Of a DNA stretch of 64,000 bases, positions 12,636 to 49,785 are shown piece after piece. How positions within the stretch are numbered: position 1 is the stretch's first letter; each line of letters opens with the position of its first letter. Location: contig JBQTIG010000038.1 of NCBI GenBank assembly GCA_052388375.1, forward strand, positions 927 to 64,926. The letters are read 5' to 3'. Both the position numbers and the translations under genes were made by a program. The stretch comes from Planctomycetaceae bacterium (lineage in GTDB: Bacteria; Planctomycetota; PLA2). Below the pieces are notes generated by a model. It was not told the origin of the DNA. It did no database searches and saw only the letters and a program-made list of their open reading frames with translations.

Positions 12636-13543
12636 TACTCGGCCGCGCGGCGGATCCCCTCCTCGAAGCGGACGCGAGGCGTCCAACGAAGCTCCTCGCG
12701 GGCCCGCGTGGCCTCCAGCGCGATGCAGTCGACCTCGCCCGGCCGCTTGGGGGCGAACTCCGGCTCCACGCGGCTGCCGAACTGGGCTGCGCATGCGCGG
12801 TACATCTCGAGATCGCTCACCTGGCGGCCCCAGCCGAGGTTGTAGATGCGATTCCTGGGGCAGCGCAGCGCCAGCCGGTTCGCCTCCACGATGTCGGCCA
12901 CGAAGAGGTAGTCGCGCGTCTTCGTGCCGTCGCCGAAGATGGTGCAGCGGCGCCCCGCGATGAGGTTTTCCATGAAGATGGAGACCACCCCCGCCTCGGA
13001 GCGCGGGGTCTGGCGGGGGCCGAAGACGTTGGGGTAGCGCAGCGCGACGAACTCCAAGGGCCCGGTGCTGGCGAACTGGAGGCCGTAGAGTTCGCCCGCG
13101 CGCTTGCCCACCCCGTAGGGCGAGAGCGGCTGGACCGGGAAGCTCTCGTCGAGCGGCAAGCGCTCCTTGGGCGGGTCGCCGTAGACCGCCCCCCCCGAGG
13201 AGGCGAAGAGGACACGCCGCGCGCCGCAATCGACGGCTGCCTGGAGCACCTGGATGGTCCCGAGGATGTTGATGCGGGCGTCCCGGATGGGATCCTCCAT
13301 GGAGGAGCGGACGTTGATCTGTGCCGCGTGGTGGCAGATTACCTCGGGCTGGAAGGCACGAACGAACTTGGCGAAGGCGGGGGTCGTGACGTCGACCTCC
13401 ACGAACTCTGCCGCCGCCGGGACGAATTCCGCCAGCCCGGTGGTGAGGTTGTCGGCGATGCCCACGTCGTGGCCGTCCGCCAGGAAGGCGTCGGCCACGT
13501 TCGAGCCGATGAAGCCGGCTCCGCCGGTCACTAGGATGCGCAT
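12608..13543 (-). CDS. NAD-dependent epimerase/dehydratase (UDP-glucose 4-epimerase family)
   Basis: It has the Rossmann motif MRILVTGGAGFIGSN and a YxxxK catalytic motif (SPYGVGK). Confidence 0.85.
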   Translation of the reverse strand: MRILVTGGAGFIGSNVADAFLADGHDVGIADNLTTGLAEFVPAAAEFVEVDVTTPAFAKFVRAFQPEVICHHAAQINVRSSMEDPIRDARINILGTIQVLQAAVDCGARRVLFASSGGAVYGDPPKERLPLDESFPVQPLSPYGVGKRAGELYGLQFASTGPLEFVALRYPNVFGPRQTPRSEAGVVSIFMENLIAGRRCTIFGDGTKTRDYLFVADIVEANRLALRCPRNRIYNLGWGRQVSDLEMYRACAAQFGSRVEPEFAPKRPGEVDCIALEATRAREELRWTPRVRFEEGIRRAAEYYRASLAKP

Positions 13544-13757
13544 CCGAAAGGTCCTCCAGGCACCTCTCTCTTTTCGGATCTATCGGGGAGCGGCCCAAAT
13601 CGTCCACGGCGGGTGCGCGGGGACGACGAAACCCGTTGTATCAGGGGGGTTTAGGTTTGGCGCCCCAGGAGCCGATTCCTTGGGGACGAGGCCTGTATCC
13701 CGTTCGCCCGCCCGGGGCGGCGGGGGTACGGGCCGGCACTTCGAGAGGAGCGATGCG

Positions 13758-14483
13758 ATGACCGGCACGAACATCCGAACCCTGGTCCTTATCCTGGCGG
13801 CGGCGGGCTTGGCCGGCTGCCGTACCCAGGCGGAGATGAACGCGGTCTTCGCGAAGGCGATCGCCTTGCGCACGGCCCCGGAATACACGATCGGCGAGAG
13901 CGACACGGTCACCATCCGCGTCCTCGACGACGCGACCGAGACCCTCGCCGTCTCGACGATCGTGCGTCCCGACGGCAAGATCTCCTTCCCCGAGCATGGC
14001 GACATCGACGTCTTGAACAAGACCGCGGCGCAGCTGCGCTCCGAGCTCGAGTCGCAGTTCCAGAAGACGCTCGGCCTCAAGGCCCCCAAGGTGTTCGTCG
14101 CGGTGACCGCCTTCGACTCCAAGACGGTGACCGTGCTGGGCGAGGTGAGGCTCCCGGGCCGCTACCCCTACACGGGCCAGATGCGGGTGACCGACCTGCT
14201 TGGCCTCACGCGCGGCGTCGTCGAGACCGGCTCGCCCAACCGCGCCCTCCTGTTCCGCGAGGTCGAGGGGGAGATGAAGGTCTACCACGTCAAGCTGAAG
14301 GACTTCCTGTGGAAGGCCGACTTCTCCACGAACTACTACGTCCGCCCCGGCGACCTGCTCTACGTGCCCCAGAACGGCTTCTCCCTCGTGGCCGAAAAGA
14401 TCCGGGTGGGCGTCTCCCCCCTCACCGCCCTGCTGAGCTTCCTCTCCTTCGGCACCGCGACGACCTCCTTCTTCGTCCCGTAG
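13758..14483 (+). CDS. Polysaccharide export lipoprotein (Wza/SLBB family)
   Basis: A GAGAGGAG Shine-Dalgarno lies upstream of the ATG. It has a lipobox (LAGC), a PES motif region (IGESDTVTIRV) and an SLBB-like segment. Confidence 0.75.
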   Translation: MTGTNIRTLVLILAAAGLAGCRTQAEMNAVFAKAIALRTAPEYTIGESDTVTIRVLDDATETLAVSTIVRPDGKISFPEHGDIDVLNKTAAQLRSELESQFQKTLGLKAPKVFVAVTAFDSKTVTVLGEVRLPGRYPYTGQMRVTDLLGLTRGVVETGSPNRALLFREVEGEMKVYHVKLKDFLWKADFSTNYYVRPGDLLYVPQNGFSLVAEKIRVGVSPLTALLSFLSFGTATTSFFVP

Positions 14484-14530
14484 CGCCTCCTTCGGCACCG
14501 CGACGACCTCCTTCTTCGTCCCGTAGCGCC
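14445..14530. repeat. Perfect 43-bp tandem duplication (2 units) spanning the stop codon of the Wza-like gene
   Basis: Unit tccttcggcaccgcgacgacctccttcttcgtcccgtagcgcc sits at 14445-14487 and again at 14488-14530, 100% identical. Confidence 0.9.
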
Positions 14531-14575: not shown

Positions 14576-16276
14576 ATGACCGCACCCGCCGTGCGCGGCG
14601 GCTCCGCCGTCTCCGGCGGAGCCCGCTCCGAGAGGGTTCGCGCCGGAGCTCTCGAGGTGGACCGCCACCCGGTCACGAACGGGCGGTACGCCGCTTTCGT
14701 CGAGGAGACGGGCCACCGCCCCCCCTGCTACTGGCCCGGGGGCCGGCTGCCCGCGAGCCTCGTGAACCACCCGGTGGTGGGCGTCGACCTCTTCGACGCC
14801 TTGGCCTTCGCACGCTGGGCCGGCGGGGCGATCCCGACCGAGGAAGAGTGGCGGCTTGCGGCGGGGCCGGTCGCGCCCGGGGCCTACGCCTGGGGAGACC
14901 GTTTCGAAGGAGGCCGCTGCAATACGGTGCGCAGCGGACACAAGGGCACGACGCCGGTGGACGCCTTTCCCGGCGGGGCGGCGCCGAGCGGCTGCCTCGA
15001 TCTCTGCGGCAACGTCTGGGAGCTGACCGTGACGCCCTATCCGGGGGATGCCGAGGCGATCGTCGTCAAGGGAGGCTCCTGGTACGACTATCCGGTCCAC
15101 GCGCGGCTCGATTCCCGGTTCCGCGCGCCGATCGCGCGCGGGGGCCCCACCACTGGACTCCGCCTCGTCTACGGCCGCCCCTGGGCCGCGCCGGCGTGCA
15201 TCCCGGCGGAGCTCGTCGAGGAGTGCATGCGCTTCCGCAAGCGGAAGGAGGGGGAGCGCGAGGGGGAGGAGGCGGGGGCCCAGGAGTTCGCGGCCACCCT
15301 GCAAGCGCTCCAGCGGGAGGTGGAGGCGCGGATCGTCGACCTGGACGAGGCCGCCGCCGATGCGGGCCTCGACGTGGTCGCCGCGCTGGACCGTTTGGAG
15401 GAGGTGCTCGAGGCGGCGCCACCCGAGGAGCCTGGCGCCCCGGCGCTTCCCGTGCCCGCGCCGCCCTCTCCCCCGCCCCGGAACTCCACCCTCCTGCAAG
15501 CATCCCCCTCGCGATTTCGCGCGCATCCCCTGGCGGTCGCCGGCATACTCGCGTCCGCGCTCCTGCTCGTGGGGTGGCTCGTGGTTTCCGTGAGCGCCAC
15601 GCGCGGCGCGGGCCGCGTTCCCTCGCGGGAGCGCGCCACGGAGGAGGCAAGAACTCCTACGCCGGAGGTGTCGCGGTCCGCCGCCCCCCCCGACCGCGCC
15701 GCGGTCCGGGAGGCGCTGCGGGCCCTCGCGGAGGGTTCCGACCGCAAATGGGCGGAGGCGGAGACCCGCCTCCTCGCGCTCGGCGCCTCGGTGCGTCCGG
15801 ATCTCGAGGAGGCCCTCGCGAAGGGGCCAAACCCCAAGACCGAGTCCTCCCTCCGCTACCTCATCGCGCTGATCGAGGAGGCGGCCGAGCCGTCGGGGAA
15901 GCCGCCTCGCGCGGCGGAGGGGCGGCTGCGACCGGGGCTCCTCTTCTGCTTCGCCTTCCTCGACCAGGGCACGATGGCGGAGGCGCGCAAGGTGCGCCTC
16001 ACCGCCGCGGCGGAAGGGGTGCCCTTCCTCGCGCTCTACAACGGCCCCGCCCCCGCGTCCGAGGTGCTCCAGTCGACCGCCGCCGCCCTGCGCGGGTCCG
16101 AGGTCGCCTTCGACGCCGACGGCTCGCTCTCCGCGCTCCTCCGCGCCCAGAGATCGCCCCATATCGCCGCGCTGGGACAGGATCTCCAGCCCTACGCCAC
16201 GCACACCGGCCCGATCGGTCGGGCGGCTATCGCGGAGATGGCGCGCACGCTCCGCACCATCCTGCGCGGATGGTGA
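14576..16276 (+). CDS. Membrane protein with N-terminal FGE/SUMF1 domain, one TM helix and a C-terminal helical domain
   Basis: DRHPVTNGRYAAFVEETGH, GNVWELT and GGSWYD are formylglycine-generating-enzyme-fold signatures. A TM helix (AVAGILASALLLVGWLVVSV) lies around residue 320. Confidence 0.75.
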   Translation: MTAPAVRGGSAVSGGARSERVRAGALEVDRHPVTNGRYAAFVEETGHRPPCYWPGGRLPASLVNHPVVGVDLFDALAFARWAGGAIPTEEEWRLAAGPVAPGAYAWGDRFEGGRCNTVRSGHKGTTPVDAFPGGAAPSGCLDLCGNVWELTVTPYPGDAEAIVVKGGSWYDYPVHARLDSRFRAPIARGGPTTGLRLVYGRPWAAPACIPAELVEECMRFRKRKEGEREGEEAGAQEFAATLQALQREVEARIVDLDEAAADAGLDVVAALDRLEEVLEAAPPEEPGAPALPVPAPPSPPPRNSTLLQASPSRFRAHPLAVAGILASALLLVGWLVVSVSATRGAGRVPSRERATEEARTPTPEVSRSAAPPDRAAVREALRALAEGSDRKWAEAETRLLALGASVRPDLEEALAKGPNPKTESSLRYLIALIEEAAEPSGKPPRAAEGRLRPGLLFCFAFLDQGTMAEARKVRLTAAAEGVPFLALYNGPAPASEVLQSTAAALRGSEVAFDADGSLSALLRAQRSPHIAALGQDLQPYATHTGPIGRAAIAEMARTLRTILRGW

Positions 16277-16281
16277 GGCGG

Positions 16282-16444
16282 CTAGGGCCTGTCTGAATGC
16301 TCCATCGTCCGCCCGAGCCCGAGCGAGCGGGCTGCCGGCGAGCCGCGAGTCCGAAGCCGTATTGACCCCAAACAGGGCGATGGACGAGCGGCGAAGCCAG
16401 CGGCCCGCGCAGCCGGGCGAAGCCAGCTGGAGTGTTCAGACAGA
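16282..16444. mobile_element. MITE-like repeat copy 1 (163 bp, imperfect terminal inverted repeats)
   Basis: It is 95% identical (8 mismatches) to 49614-49776. The ends GTCTGAAT(G/A)CTCCATC and revcomp GTCTGA(A/C)(C/T)ACTCCA(G/T)C form terminal inverted repeats. It starts 6 nt after a stop codon. Confidence 0.8.
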
Positions 16445-16457
16445 TGGGATGAGAAGG

Positions 16458-16531
16458 CCGGTCTCCCTAGCGCAGTACCGTGAGGTCTGCATCAGTGTTG
16501 CGGGCTCAACGGCCCAGAAGGAGACCGGCCA
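16458..16531 (+). promoter_or_regulatory. Long-range 11-bp perfect stem (GGCCGGTCTCC ... GGAGACCGGCC) that sequesters the Shine-Dalgarno of the IS110-like remnant
   Basis: The 3' arm contains aAGGAGAccggcc immediately before ATG 16531, so the stem would occlude the ribosome-binding site. This is the translational control pattern common in IS transposase leaders. Confidence 0.5.
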
Positions 16532-16629
16532 TGACGCAGGATAGCACCTTGACCGTGGGCGTTTATGCCGGCGACGAGCACAGCCACCTGTGCGTGCTGG
16601 ACGGGGGCGGACAGGTCCTAGACCGCGAG
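16531..16629 (+). pseudogene. IS110-family transposase N-terminal remnant (about 33 codons)
   Basis: MTQDSTLTVGVYAGDEHSHLCVLDGGGQVLDRE follows the IS110 pattern V-G-[IV]-D-x-[GA]-K-x-x-H-x-x-C-V-L-D (K replaced by D here). The similarity ends where the frame runs antisense into the convergent DUF92 gene. Confidence 0.55.
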
Positions 16630-17283
16630 CGCGCCGAGCAGCGCCCCGGCACAGGTCGCGACGACGTTGCACCAGTCGTTGCCGCGCGCTCCGAGGCGCG
16701 GCTGCACGAACAGCCCGAAGAGGCTGTCGGCGAGGTTGCCTCCCATTCCCGCGGCGGCGACGCGCAGGGCCGTCGCCGCGTCGGGCAGCGCGTCGAGGAG
16801 GAGCGCGAGAAAGGGGACGATGGCCGCCGCGACGATCCCCGCCCCCGTTCCGAACGGCGTCATCCCGCCGTCCGCGCCCCGGACGACGCGGGGCCCGACG
16901 AGGAGCGCGCGCGGGACGCCGCCGAACCGCTTCCCCAATTCCCCGGAGAGCGTGTCGGAAAGCGCCGCCGCCAGAGCGCCGGTGGAGGCGGCCGCGCCCC
17001 AGACGAGGCCGCATCCTGACGCAAGCGCGGCCAGCGCCGCCGCGCCGCCGTTGCTTGCGACCTGACACCAGTCGCGCCGCCGTCCGGAGGCCGGCGAGCA
17101 GAGCGTGCCCAGCACGAGAAGAGCCGCGAGCACGGCGACCCCGGCCCAGCCGAGTCCGAGGGCCATGCCGCCCCCCACCAGGGCTCCCGCCAGCGCGCCG
17201 CGAAGGTCCACGGCTTCCTTCGCCAAGGCGAGCGCCGCGATGGCGGGAACCGCGGCGACCGGCCAGATGCCGTCGGGCGCCAT
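16618..17283 (-). CDS. DUF92 / VTE6-like polytopic membrane protein (putative prenyl-phosphate kinase)
   Basis: It has several TM helices and a conserved GGNLADSLFG motif. The longer 403-aa ORF in this frame is low-complexity upstream of Met 17283. Confidence 0.5.
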   Translation of the reverse strand: MAPDGIWPVAAVPAIAALALAKEAVDLRGALAGALVGGGMALGLGWAGVAVLAALLVLGTLCSPASGRRRDWCQVASNGGAAALAALASGCGLVWGAAASTGALAAALSDTLSGELGKRFGGVPRALLVGPRVVRGADGGMTPFGTGAGIVAAAIVPFLALLLDALPDAATALRVAAAGMGGNLADSLFGLFVQPRLGARGNDWCNVVATCAGALLGALAV

Positions 17284-33882: not shown

Positions 33883-35322
33883 ATGGCTTTCTTGAAACCG
33901 CTGCCCCTTCTCCTCCTCTTCCTTCTCCTCACCTCCTGCCAGGACAAGGACCCCGCACCGGCAGCCCCTGGCGGAGGCGAGTCCCGGACGCTGGGCCTCG
34001 TGCTGGCCAAGCCGGAGCAGCTGCGCGGCATCCCCCTTGCGACCGCCCCTTATTCGGGGGACGAGCTGCCCTCCAAGGTGGATCTCTCCGAGAAGATGCC
34101 GCCGCCCGGGTTCCAGGGGAAGCAGAGCTCCTGCGTCGGCTTCTCGGTGGCCTACGCGCTCAAGAGCTACCAGGAGCTCCTCGAGGAGGGAAAGCCTCGG
34201 TCGGCCGGCGGCGGGCGCGCCGACCCGACGCGGGTCTTCAGCCCGGCCTTCGTCTACAACCAGATCAACAACGGTCGTGACGGGGGCGCCACCTTCATCG
34301 ACGCGCTCAACCTGCTCAGCCAGCAGGGTGCGACGCCTCTGGCCGAGATGCCTTATGACGAGAACGACTTCACGCGCCCGCCCTCCGGCCGGGCTGCCGC
34401 CGCGGCGCGCCGCTACCGCATCGATTACTGGCGCCAGGTGAACGTTGCGGACGTCAAGGAGGTGAAGGCGCACCTCAACGCCGGGTACCCCGTGATGATC
34501 GGGGGCCCAGTGGACGACGGCTTCCTCGCCATGCAGCGCGGAGGGGTATGGCGGTCGCCGAGCGGGCAGGTGAAGGGCGGCCACGCGATGCTCCTGGTCG
34601 GCTACGACGACGCGAAGAACGCCTTCCGTCTCATCAATTCGTGGGGCCCGGGCTGGGCCGACGACGGGTTCGGCTGGATCGACTACAACTACTTCCGCAC
34701 CGTCATCGTCGAGGCCTACGTCGCCAAAGACGCTCATAACGGGCGCGCCTCCGACGAGCGCCCCGATCCGACCCCCGATCCGACTCCGGATCCGACTCCC
34801 GATCCCACGCCGGATCCCACGCCGGATCCCACGCCCGATCCCACGCCCGATCCGCAGCCGTTCACGCCCCCCGAGGTGAGCTTCGCCATCACCAGCGTGC
34901 AGCACAACACGCAGTTCCCCGATCAGGAGGAACTGGGCTACTTCATGCGCTTCGACGGCACTCTCCAGATCCCGCCCGGAGCCGGCCGCGTGGACCAGAT
35001 CGTCGTGTTCTTCTATTACGACGCGGGCAAGGGCAACAAGGGCAAGGCGGTGCGCGGCTTGGACAAGCACTACGCGACCGTGGATGGAAGCGCCGCCTGC
35101 GGCACCGCCCCCTATGAGATCCCTCCCGAGGGGTTCGACACGACGTGGGCCTGCTGGATCCCGTACGCGGCGATGGATCTGCCCGCCGGGGTCTGGCGGC
35201 AGACGCCCCAGGGGCCGATCTACGCGCCGGCCACCACCGCCCTGGTCGCGGAGCCGGTGCTCTTCATCGACAAATTCGCCGTCCGCTCCGGCGGCGTGGT
35301 GCAGTTCCTCGTGACGAAGTAG
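33883..35322 (+). CDS. Papain-family (C1) cysteine peptidase lipoprotein with (PDPT)n linker and C-terminal domain
   Basis: It has a lipobox (LLTSCQD), the catalytic Cys context QGKQSSCVGFSVAYA, His in GGHAMLLVGYDD and Asn in NSWGPGWADDG. Confidence 0.8.
   Translation: MAFLKPLPLLLLFLLLTSCQDKDPAPAAPGGGESRTLGLVLAKPEQLRGIPLATAPYSGDELPSKVDLSEKMPPPGFQGKQSSCVGFSVAYALKSYQELLEEGKPRSAGGGRADPTRVFSPAFVYNQINNGRDGGATFIDALNLLSQQGATPLAEMPYDENDFTRPPSGRAAAAARRYRIDYWRQVNVADVKEVKAHLNAGYPVMIGGPVDDGFLAMQRGGVWRSPSGQVKGGHAMLLVGYDDAKNAFRLINSWGPGWADDGFGWIDYNYFRTVIVEAYVAKDAHNGRASDERPDPTPDPTPDPTPDPTPDPTPDPTPDPTPDPQPFTPPEVSFAITSVQHNTQFPDQEELGYFMRFDGTLQIPPGAGRVDQIVVFFYYDAGKGNKGKAVRGLDKHYATVDGSAACGTAPYEIPPEGFDTTWACWIPYAAMDLPAGVWRQTPQGPIYAPATTALVAEPVLFIDKFAVRSGGVVQFLVTK
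34762..34857 (+). repeat. In-frame 12-nt tandem repeat (8x) encoding (PDPT)8 linker, PDPT PDPT ... PDPQP
   Basis: ccgatccgactcc / ccgatcccacgcc units. The repeat could expand or contract by slippage. Confidence 0.85.
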
Positions 35323-39126: not shown

Positions 39127-39272
39127 GGGCGAGCGCCGAGGGATTGTACCCTTGAGAGGCGCGCCGGAAACTACCCCCTTGCGCGGCGACCCGGCTCGCC
39201 GCTAGGATTCCTGTTCGACAGGAGGGCACCCGGCTCGATTCCAGCGGGAACGTCGGGCAATAGGGAGGCGCC

Positions 39273-39300
39273 GAGGCCGGTCCTCTCGGGGACCGGCCTC
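39273..39300. other. Perfect 11-bp GC hairpin (GAGGCCGGTCC-TCTCGG-GGACCGGCCTC)
   Basis: It is followed on the plus strand by CGCCGTTTTCC. It sits in the 210-nt gap between two minus-strand genes. Confidence 0.5.
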
Positions 39301-39336
39301 CGCCGTTTTCCGGGGAGACGCGTGAGCCCGATCGGG

Positions 39337-49135: not shown

Positions 49136-49617
49136 AGGGCAACCCCGAAGTCATCGACGTCCTCGGCGAGGTCTTGTGCGCCGAGTTGACCGCCATCAAC
49201 CAGTACTTCATCCACGCCAAGATGTGCGCGGACTGGGGCTACCACGCGCTGGCCACCTACGGTCGCGCCGAGTCCATCGACGAGATGAAGCACGCCGAGA
49301 TAGTCATCGAGCGCATCCTCTTCCTCGAGGGCGTGCCCAACATGCAGAAGTACATGAAGGTGAAGGTGGGCAAGACGGTTCCGGAGCAGTTCCAGAACGA
49401 CGTCGAGCTTGAGTACGGCGCGGTGGAACGGCTCAACCGCGGCATCGCGATCTGCGTGGAGAAGAAGGACAACACCACGCGGGAGCTGCTCGAGACCATC
49501 CTCGCCGAGGAGGAGCACCACATCGACTGGCTCGAGACCCAGCTCCATCTCGTGAAGACGATCGGGGTCGAGCGCTACCTGTCCATGAAGCTCGGGGAGG
49601 AGAAGGCCGGACACTAG
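49132..49617 (+). CDS. bfr: Bacterioferritin
   Basis: MKGNPEVIDVLGEVLCAELTAINQYFIHAKM has the ferroxidase Glu/His ligands and the heme-axial Met. It is 161 aa. Confidence 0.9.
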   Translation: MKGNPEVIDVLGEVLCAELTAINQYFIHAKMCADWGYHALATYGRAESIDEMKHAEIVIERILFLEGVPNMQKYMKVKVGKTVPEQFQNDVELEYGAVERLNRGIAICVEKKDNTTRELLETILAEEEHHIDWLETQLHLVKTIGVERYLSMKLGEEKAGH

Positions 49618-49782
49618 GGCCTGTCTGAATACTCCATCGTCGGCCCGAGCCCGAGCGAGCGGGCTGCTGGCGAGCCGCAAGTCCGAAGCCGTATTGACCC
49701 CAAACACGGCGATGGACGAGCGGCGAAGCGAGCGGCCCGCGCAGCCGGGCGAAGCCAGATGGAGTAGTCAGACAGACCCTAG
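49614..49782. mobile_element. MITE-like repeat copy 2 (169 bp with 25-bp terminal inverted repeats)
   Basis: The terminal inverted repeats are CTAGGGCCTGTCTGAATACTCCATC and revcomp CTAGGGTCTGTCTGACTACTCCATC. The bfr TAG stop is the first 3 nt of the element. Confidence 0.8.
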
Positions 49783-49785
49783 CCC

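Follow-up and report, generated by a model that had tools for sequence, protein, structure and literature searches.

The window considered here, the whole 64-kb stretch of DNA that was analysed (positions 927 to 64,926 of contig JBQTIG010000038.1, from a Planctomycetaceae metagenome-assembled genome, or MAG; GC content 70.7%), contains in the gap between two convergent genes a stub of an IS1111-family insertion sequence (IS), 171 bp long and located at 16442–16612 on the plus strand. On one side of the gap a plus-strand gene with an FGE-sulfatase domain ends at 16276. On the other side, and outside the IS, a minus-strand gene at 16618–17283 encodes a DUF92 membrane protein (Pfam PF01940, 3.4e-27) with its stop codon at 16618–16620; the protein is 100% identical to NCBI MGQ0613188.1 (221 aa), from a Planctomycetaceae MAG, and 87% identical to its orthologue P0122.

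The host of the stub is a miniature inverted-repeat transposable element (MITE), recognised as such because it is short (171 bp), non-coding, bounded by 23-nt terminal repeats and present in two copies in the window. Copy 2 (49614–49784, plus strand) is uninterrupted over its 171 bp, with the terminal repeats CTAGGGCCTGTCTGAATACTCCA (left) and TGGAGTAGTCAGACAGACCCTAG (full right repeat), and provides an 'empty site' reference for the target. Copy 1, which is 94.5% identical to copy 2 over 163 nt, occupies 16282–16441 on the plus strand; it comprises the left terminal repeat, the body and the first 14 nt of the right repeat (...TGGAGTGTTCAGAC), and forms the left target flank of the IS. The terminal CTAG of copy 1, at 16618–16621, supplies the TAG stop codon of the minus-strand DUF92 gene, and the CTAG of copy 2 (49614–49617) likewise supplies the TAG stop of the upstream plus-strand gene, whose product ends ...GEEKAGH. 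That both copies abut gene ends suggests insertion of the MITE at CTAG or TA sites that overlap stop codons. A 20-mer from the MITE found one chance match only in the GTDB representative genomes, in a Lachnospiraceae MAG.

Alignment of the two copies shows that the right terminal repeat of copy 1 is split. It stops with ...TGGAGTGTTCAGAC at 16441 and resumes as AGGTCCTAG at 16613–16621 on the plus strand, the last 9 nt of the repeat, beginning with the AG that is the crossover dinucleotide of the target. This right flank matches the end of copy 2 (GACAGACCCTAG) and, at 11 of 12 positions, the reverse complement of the left repeat (16282–16293); the MITE repeat end as such spans 16610–16621 (GACAGGTCCTAG). 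Copy 2 lacks the intervening segment altogether. The stub interrupts the right terminal inverted repeat of the MITE as a discrete insertion 7–9 bp from its tip, rather than lying immediately downstream of MITE copy 1, where the first-pass annotation had placed it. The dinucleotide AG stands on both sides (16442–16443 and 16613–16614), the MITE repeat being otherwise restored exactly. The bases that precede the right-hand AG read GCGGAC, and the GGA extension found at the right end of family members is not identifiable there. Treating GACAG (16439–16443 and 16610–16614) as a 5-bp target duplication was rejected, since the family makes none and AG alone is shared.

The stub consists of a complete left end of about 90 nt and about 27 transposase codons, the rest of the element having been deleted; all of its parts lie on the plus strand. 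It opens with a 7-bp left terminal extension, AGATGGG (16442–16448), of which the first two bases are the AG crossover dinucleotide, followed by the left subterminal inverted repeat ATGAGAAGGCC (16449–16459), whose right partner is absent from the window, there being no CCTTCTCAT elsewhere in it. As had been claimed, an ATG at 16531–16533 opens the peptide MTQDSTLTVGVYAGDEHSHLCVLDGGGQVL. The truncated transposase frame, MTQDSTLTVGVYAGDEHSHLCVLDGGG(Q), runs from 16531 to 16612, and it is the MITE repeat that codes for the last four residues of the peptide, GQVL. In the stub, Tyr (TAT, 16564–16566) stands in place of the first catalytic Asp of the GxDxG motif.

The identity of the stub is carried by two models from which the window was excluded. 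A hidden Markov model (HMM) of the family N-terminus, run against all six frames of the window, gave a sole match at 16543–16632 (19.2 bits, E 1.4e-5; next best 3.8 bits), in which the model sequence sewtiGiDLGDRkShyCrLdetGeiv aligns with STLTVGVYAGDEHSHLCVLDGGGQVL over residues 5–30 at 19–22 bits. A covariance model of the left end, R1, built from the left ends of 10 relatives, matches 16442–16536 over model positions 1–98 of 98 with 88.6 bits (E ~1e-18) and has no other match in the window. Its best off-target score (13 bits, E 0.2) belongs to a GC-rich hairpin at 39269–39308 (GAGGCCGGTCC, a 6-nt loop, GGACCGGCCTC); the weak likeness of this hairpin to the stem arms described below is probably due to chance. 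Family transposases also find the frame by tblastn, the check that had been proposed (P0070, E 3e-7), and full elements align with the window by blastn over 172 nt (L024, E 4e-12) and 190 nt (L019, E 2e-9). Because the two window-free models agree, the IS110-superfamily origin can be regarded as secure, and on these comparisons the segment 16442–16612 is the left-end remnant of an element of the IS1111 group (IS110 superfamily, DEDD). The first-pass annotation's reading of an IS110-family 5' remnant is upheld, with the leader homologous to the left ends of elements that encode PF01548 and PF02371. The stub contains neither recombinase nor guide RNA nor right end, and is immobile and almost certainly functionless.

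The peptide taken alone is a poor guide. Its GxDxG...CVLD..G likeness is weak evidence, because the motif is also common to other RNase H-like folds, and direct searches returned little. Pfam and NCBIfam gave no IS110 match for the 26–30-aa peptide; a 40-aa query that included the leader read-through yielded no candidate in a word-indexed protein search; tblastn of the peptide against plasmids gave one unannotated match at E=8; and an exhaustive phmmer search of 1.84e9 representative proteins found none at E ≤ 1e-3. A degenerate EHSHLCVLD pattern had 0 matches in GTDB genomes, implying that the source genome is outside the GTDB collection or that its representative lacks the stub. Rfam found nothing relevant in the window region or in four relatives' loci, and a scan of 16200–16750 for sigma-70 promoters and terminators found nothing. 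Is the peptide, then, a chance likeness to the GxDxG...CVLD β-hairpin of RNase H-like and sugar-kinase folds, in what is ordinary intergenic or MITE sequence? The null results of Pfam, NCBIfam, plasmid tblastn and phmmer would fit, as would the tendency of high-GC DNA to yield long spurious open reading frames (ORFs). We nevertheless give this explanation practically no credence, since the whole leader has homologues in the left ends of 10 bona fide elements, the HMM match is unique among the six frames and MITE copy 2 has no such segment; the HMM, the left-end comparison and the covariance model together refute it.

A second question is where the transposase similarity stops. It had been put at about 33 codons, and is here found to end at about codon 27–30. 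Gapped tblastn alignments of several family proteins reach 16689–16749, and the plus-strand frame stays open to 17019, both of which could mean that the gene is untruncated and runs on past 16620, in frame or frameshifted over the DUF92 gene. This is very improbable, however. Profile scores are flat beyond residue 30–37, the MITE repeat end intervenes at 16610–16621, and the minus strand beyond 16620 codes for the DUF92 C-terminus LGARGNDWCNVVATCAGALLGALAV, which is kept across 15 homologues; given the flat scores and this conserved coding sequence opposite, the transposase frame through 16620–16749 was rejected as spurious. Similarity to Transposase_20 (PF02371) was found in none of the six frames of the window, nor was any further transposase similarity beyond the stub, and the intact gene in another frame that the first-pass annotation had allowed for did not appear. 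Motifs of the right-hand region do not adjoin the stub either, and elsewhere in the window there are only scattered short-pattern matches to them.

The relatives were reached through the leader. A metagenome scan with a 20-mer from it (AGAAGGAGACCGGCCATGAC) returned 17 loci, of which 16 are chance matches to a ribosome-binding site (RBS) plus ATG. The remaining one, L005, differs in the loop of the leader stem but in neither arm, and the stem precedes a 367-aa ORF with the domains PF01548 (1.2e-11) and PF02371 (4.4e-20). The L005 ORF retrieved 120 homologues, every one of them with both PF01548 and PF02371, and DNA was fetched for 10 further distinct relatives.

These elements, about 1.45–1.65 kb long, share a common plan. 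The 11 distinct left ends have in common (A/T)GATGG(G/A)ATGAGA(A/C/G)GGC..., a variable inner region and a GGAG-bearing 3' arm at the start codon, and (A/T)GATGG(G/A) opens all 10 relatives whose sequence reaches the end. In the relatives, the left end has a 7-bp extension and the subterminal repeat ATGAGA(A/C/G)GGCC.., with about 90 nt of non-coding sequence in all; the transposase gene encodes 350–367 aa and is followed by a non-coding region of 270–550 nt with conserved motifs. The right end consists of the inverse repeat ..GGCCTTCTCAT and then a 3-bp extension, GGA (AGA in L044), with a TTGAC(A/C/T) box at a fixed 7–8 nt from the right repeat. Both subterminal repeats were found in L019, L023, L024, L044, L046, L058, L059 and L060.

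In the right region there is also a second occurrence of the left target flank of the element itself, with AG(AT), immediately ahead of a conserved GCAGC motif. The copies are GGGACTGATGG in L024 (~2880–2905), AGGATAGATGG in L019 (~2270–2300), GCCTCAGAT in L034 (~2700–2720) and GCCGTAGAGAT in L044 (~2700–2720), and they extend over 11 nt in L019, L024 and L044 and 9 nt in L034; a weaker flank match is seen in L005 and L023 (GTTCCAGAT compared with GTACCAGAT). Such a flank copy resembles what would be expected of the left-target guide of a seek/bridge RNA. CCAGAT and AGGATAGATGG were at one stage candidates for the right ends of L005 and L019, and were rejected: the true ends lie 130–400 nt further on, at the subterminal repeat, and these segments are target-flank copies inside the non-coding region.

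Every relative examined sits in REP-like or in MITE-like or tandem repeats, and the same flank recurs in REP-like repeats in 10 contexts of L024–L033, in 10 of L034–L043 and in L060. Empty target units beside L024 (CCCCGGGGAC|GGTCCTGC) and L060 (GACGAGTG|AGCGCAGC) show no target duplication, the AG being single. The expectation that an element of this kind would target repeated sequence thus has stronger support than the first-pass annotation had given it, from these contexts and from the position of the stub in a MITE terminal inverted repeat. In a comparison outside which the ISfinder entries lie, the subfamily appears to be uncharacterised; it is known here from metagenomes and MAGs only, in Acidobacteriota, Thermoanaerobaculia and the source Planctomycetaceae MAG.

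Some of the relatives are themselves irregular. The P0064 element at L058 (~180–290), which is the closest leader relative, has a 55-bp direct tandem duplication within its first 40 transposase codons; this breaks the frame, so that the gene caller began the protein at a later TTG. Two of the 10 copies of the P0077 element (L034 and L043, as against L035–L042) are without the last ~25 nt, GGCCTTCTCATGGAAGCACACAGAA, and read ..TTGACACAGGCCGTGGCCCGGAGCG; they thus have no right subterminal repeat and represent another kind of end-damaged copy. L019 and L020 agree in the IS and in 450 bp or more of the right flank and differ in the left flank; the right flank leads to an ORF (L020, 2331–2777) with an N-terminus that is ParB-like by eye alone. 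An assembly joined across a repeated IS might explain this, as might an IS that marks the border of a larger mobile element.

How does this subfamily compare with known elements? Members of the IS1111 family have subterminal repeats of 11–13 bp, with extensions measuring 7 bp at the left end and 3 bp at the right, and insert with no added bases (PMC11187229); their downstream non-coding region encodes a seek/bridge RNA (PMC11187229; PMC11208160). Like ISEc11, IS4321/IS5075 and IS1111, the stub has a left end that is short (about 90 nt) and combines a 7-bp extension with a subterminal repeat. Its relatives likewise have the DEDD and Transposase_20 domains and a long downstream non-coding region with a target-flank copy; their right extension measures 3 bp, and they do not duplicate the target. 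A further likeness is that insertion is into repeats, the repeat here being the terminal inverted repeat of another transposable element. The differences are that the window copy keeps the left 171 bp only, and that the target is a MITE repeat and not a Tn21 repeat, attC or a repetitive extragenic palindrome (REP). IS4321 and IS5075 are reported to insert into the terminal repeat of Tn21.

Two other members of the IS110 group can be compared. In IS621 the core dinucleotide is CT and a bridge RNA guides recombination (PMC11208160); the recombinase superfamily is the same, and the core CT is AG on the other strand. The guide RNA of IS621 fills its left end, however, whereas the present relatives have the target-matching segment within the right non-coding region. 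The left end was considered as an IS621-type bridge RNA and rejected, being too short (about 90 nt) and having the target-matching segment on the other side of the gene. ISPpu9, of Pseudomonas putida, has an AG crossover at both junctions and inserts into REP sequences (PMC12288879), and AG is likewise present at both junctions of the stub; ISPpu9 differs in having no subterminal repeats.

The leader of the stub carries a long-range stem. Its 5' arm, GGCCGGTCTCC, lies at 16456–16466 and its 3' arm, GGAGACCGGCC, at 16520–16530 on the plus strand, as identified by inverted-repeat scan, folding and covariation. There are 11 perfect pairs around a 53-nt loop; the 3' arm takes in the Shine-Dalgarno GGAG, which is thereby covered, and the last pair stands at –1 of the ATG. 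The Shine-Dalgarno sequence, the spacer and the last base ahead of the start codon are thus paired with bases just inside the left subterminal repeat. The first-pass annotation had recognised the perfect 11-bp repeat, with coordinates (16458–16468 and 16521–16531) that are 1–2 nt off, and had rightly seen that the AAGGAGA Shine-Dalgarno, at 16518–16524, is mostly within the 3' arm. In the predicted fold, on which the minimum free energy and centroid structures agree, the stem closes a multiloop with two small hairpins, one from the minimum free energy fold at 16472–16490 (GCAGUACC GUGA GGUCUGC) and another at 16502–16515 (GGGCU CAAC GGCCC), also on the plus strand, the latter with a GGGCTCRA motif that is common to L058, L019, L024 and L059. 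The leader has a ΔG of –42 kcal/mol, modestly better than that of shuffled sequences (z –2.2).

First-order Markov simulations predict about 10 perfect 11-bp inverted repeats with a loop of up to 100 nt per 64 kb, and the window has 15 k-mer hits, about 9 of them distinct. The stem gains its significance only from the family comparison. For the 11 aligned left ends of the family, RNAalifold independently predicts the long-range helix. Six of the 11 stem pairs show changes on both sides, including G-C to A-U (five times, at one pair), U-A to C-G and C-G to U-A, and 90.9% of cells are paired; none of 500 shuffles reaches the observed values, and sliding the partner strand reduces pairing to 30–54%. 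The variants, given as 5' arm and 3' arm, are GGCCGGTCTCC/GGAGACCGGCC, GGCCAGCCTCC/GGAGGCTGACC, GGCTGGTC/GACCAGCC, GGCCATTCCT/AGGAATGGCC and GGCCACCC/GGGTGGCC, the last with a stem that covers a GTG start; in L044 the register is shifted and the helix spans the GTG start. In every left end the 3' arm holds the GGAG and ends at the start codon. Inner helix 2, corresponding to the first hairpin, has double changes in four of its five outer pairs, yet just 74.5% of its cells are paired. This pattern of compensatory change shows that the structure is under selection; the stem is a conserved trait of the subfamily's left end and not peculiar to the window copy. The simplest reading is that it occludes the ribosome-binding site. 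As to the earlier claim of a translational-control structure, the stem is conserved, with its six compensatory pairs, and we infer the inhibition of translation. In live elements its most likely role would be to keep transposase translation low on transcripts that include the whole left end, those reading through from host genes among them.

These features are best explained by the following history. A full-length IS1111-group element of about 1.45–1.65 kb entered the right terminal inverted repeat of the 171-bp MITE, in an orientation- and sequence-specific manner at TTCAGAC|AGGTCCTAG, with the family's AG crossover and without target duplication. When intact, it would have encoded a DEDD recombinase, with the guide (seek/bridge) RNA region following the gene, and would have had subterminal inverted repeats. 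A later loss of about 1.3–1.5 kb, from about codon 27 to the exact right end of the element, took away what followed in the gene together with the guide-RNA region and the right subterminal repeat. The relatives offer a clue to this deletion. Where the window has ..GCGGACAGGTCCTAGA, L058 has ..GCGGGGAGGTCGTCGA and L019 has ..GCGGCACGGTCGTCGA, implying that the parent gene probably held AGGTC.T.GA, a sequence that would resemble the element's own target as well as the right junction GGA|AGGTCCTAGAC. If recombination took place across an AGGTC-type short homology or pseudo-target, between codons 27–30 and the right IS/target junction, precisely the observed junction would result, whether by slippage or through the element's own guided recombinase acting at a pseudo-target; parent codons 27–31 reading GGACAGGTC.. 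would fit either. Such recombination would also account for the way the frame seemingly continues into the MITE as GQVL, and it is the most likely mode of deletion.

The exactness of the right junction invites two further explanations. One is that it records an RNA-guided self-truncation at a pseudo-target in the transposase gene, in which guide RNA and recombinase would have used GCGGAC-AG-GTC.., similar to the true target TTCAGAC-AG-GTCC; recombination with the right junction would then have released a circle bearing the gene, the guide-RNA region and the right end, with the left-end stub staying behind. We consider this improbable, an estimate that covers the self-truncation itself, with a switch that involves right-end RNA, taken up below, as a related reading. 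The other is that a full element never occupied this site. The 171-bp piece would instead have arrived as a left-end-only mini-circle, produced by aberrant excision at an internal pseudo-site and inserted in trans through the action of a full copy. In favour of this, each junction is exact and bears an AG, and the several partial circles that ISPpu9 forms explain the solo modules in its genome (PMC12288879). The piece lacks, however, the family-invariant right subterminal repeat and 3-bp right extension, it is a single copy in 64 kb with no second copy in the metagenome scan, and the short homology between the relatives' gene and the right flank makes deletion in situ the simpler course, all of which make the mini-circle improbable.

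We conclude that the stub is very probably the remnant of a full IS1111-group element that inserted in the MITE repeat and was later deleted, and that it retains a conserved, RBS-occluding stem. What is shown is the identity of the stub, its boundaries, its site of insertion, the absence of the other parts, and that the stem is conserved and covaries; the course of the deletion is inferred, as is the inhibition of translation. Several points weigh against this conclusion. The exhaustive phmmer search with the peptide was null, and no full-length copy with exactly this leader or N-terminus was found. The mechanism proposed for the deletion draws on one junction and the relatives' consensus. The 11-bp stem is, by itself, no rarer than chance in this DNA. 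Its 5' arm overlaps the left subterminal repeat by 4–6 nt, so that part of the conservation of this arm has another cause. Finally, a promoter predicted at the circle junction (a TTGAC(A) box, with the –10 across GA-AG-AT) would initiate transcripts only a few bases ahead of the 5' arm, on which the stem should also form, and the logic by which only read-through transcripts are blocked is not obviously applicable.

The last two points bear directly on whether the stem is mainly a recombination element, with Shine-Dalgarno occlusion as a side effect. It might be an extended left subterminal repeat, a site for recombinase binding or an RNA that cooperates with the downstream guide RNA. Both the overlap of the 5' arm with the subterminal repeat and the retention of the stem on the predicted junction-promoter transcript would suit such a role, as does the part that subterminal repeats take in IS1111 end recognition (PMC11187229). 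Against it, the 3' arm always bears GGAG and always ends at the start codon, the covarying positions fall between the Shine-Dalgarno and the start codon, and the register shift in L044 covers the GTG start, as expected of a translation element. Moreover, ISEc11 cargo derivatives in which the central portion is replaced and the ends alone are intact still move if transposase and guide RNA are provided in trans (PMC11187229). On balance a primary role in recombination seems unlikely, and occlusion of the ribosome-binding site is preferred.

Structures that limit transposase translation have precedents. The transposase families of IS10, IS50 and IS200 are unrelated to the present one, and in these elements an inverted repeat near the element end pairs with the ribosome-binding site of the transposase mRNA. 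Transcription from the promoter of IS10 or IS50 itself begins within the repeat, so that read-through transcripts alone are blocked; here, in contrast, the predicted start of the junction promoter is upstream of the 5' arm, and all transcripts should carry the stem. The stem therefore looks like a constitutive brake and not a read-through-only filter, if the promoter prediction is correct. Within the IS110 group, a structure in the 5' untranslated region (UTR) of the ISPpu9 tnp mRNA inhibits translation, and partial modules occur in the genome (PMC12288879). A structured leader on the transposase message is shared with ISPpu9, which nevertheless has a long, complex UTR compared with the single long-range stem that closes a 53-nt multiloop here, and whose regulatory RNAs Asr9 and Ssr9 have no visible counterpart. 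Insertion into the terminal repeat of another transposon, an AG crossover and a translation-limiting leader structure are established themes of IS110/IS1111 elements. A less likely reading is that the stem is a switch, coupling transposase translation to the state of the element (circle or integrated) by pairing with right-end RNA, and so would do more than act as a constitutive brake.

For this genome the stub is a neutral fossil, one that records the use of MITE terminal repeats as landing sites by an IS1111-type element. The covarying, RBS-occluding stem is a small new observation on an uncharacterised subfamily, which would be the second IS110/IS1111 line after ISPpu9 in which a leader structure probably limits transposase translation. 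The left-end signature (A/T)GATGG(G/A)-ATGAGAAGGCC, together with covariance model R1, can be used to annotate copies and remnants that protein-domain searches miss, and the flank copies in the relatives' right regions form a data set for guide/target pairs in IS1111-type elements.

Two repeats elsewhere in the window may be mentioned. A perfect 43-bp tandem duplication, CTCCTTCGGCACCGCGACGACCTCCTTCTTCGTCCCGTAGCGC, is present in two copies at 14444–14529, at the end of a plus-strand ORF (13254–14483) and near the start of the FGE-sulfatase gene; it could be due to recent slippage or be an assembly artefact. At 34750–34869, an array of about 10 units of a 12-nt repeat (CCCGATCCGACT and variants) would, if the region is coding, encode a proline-rich linker of PDPT type.

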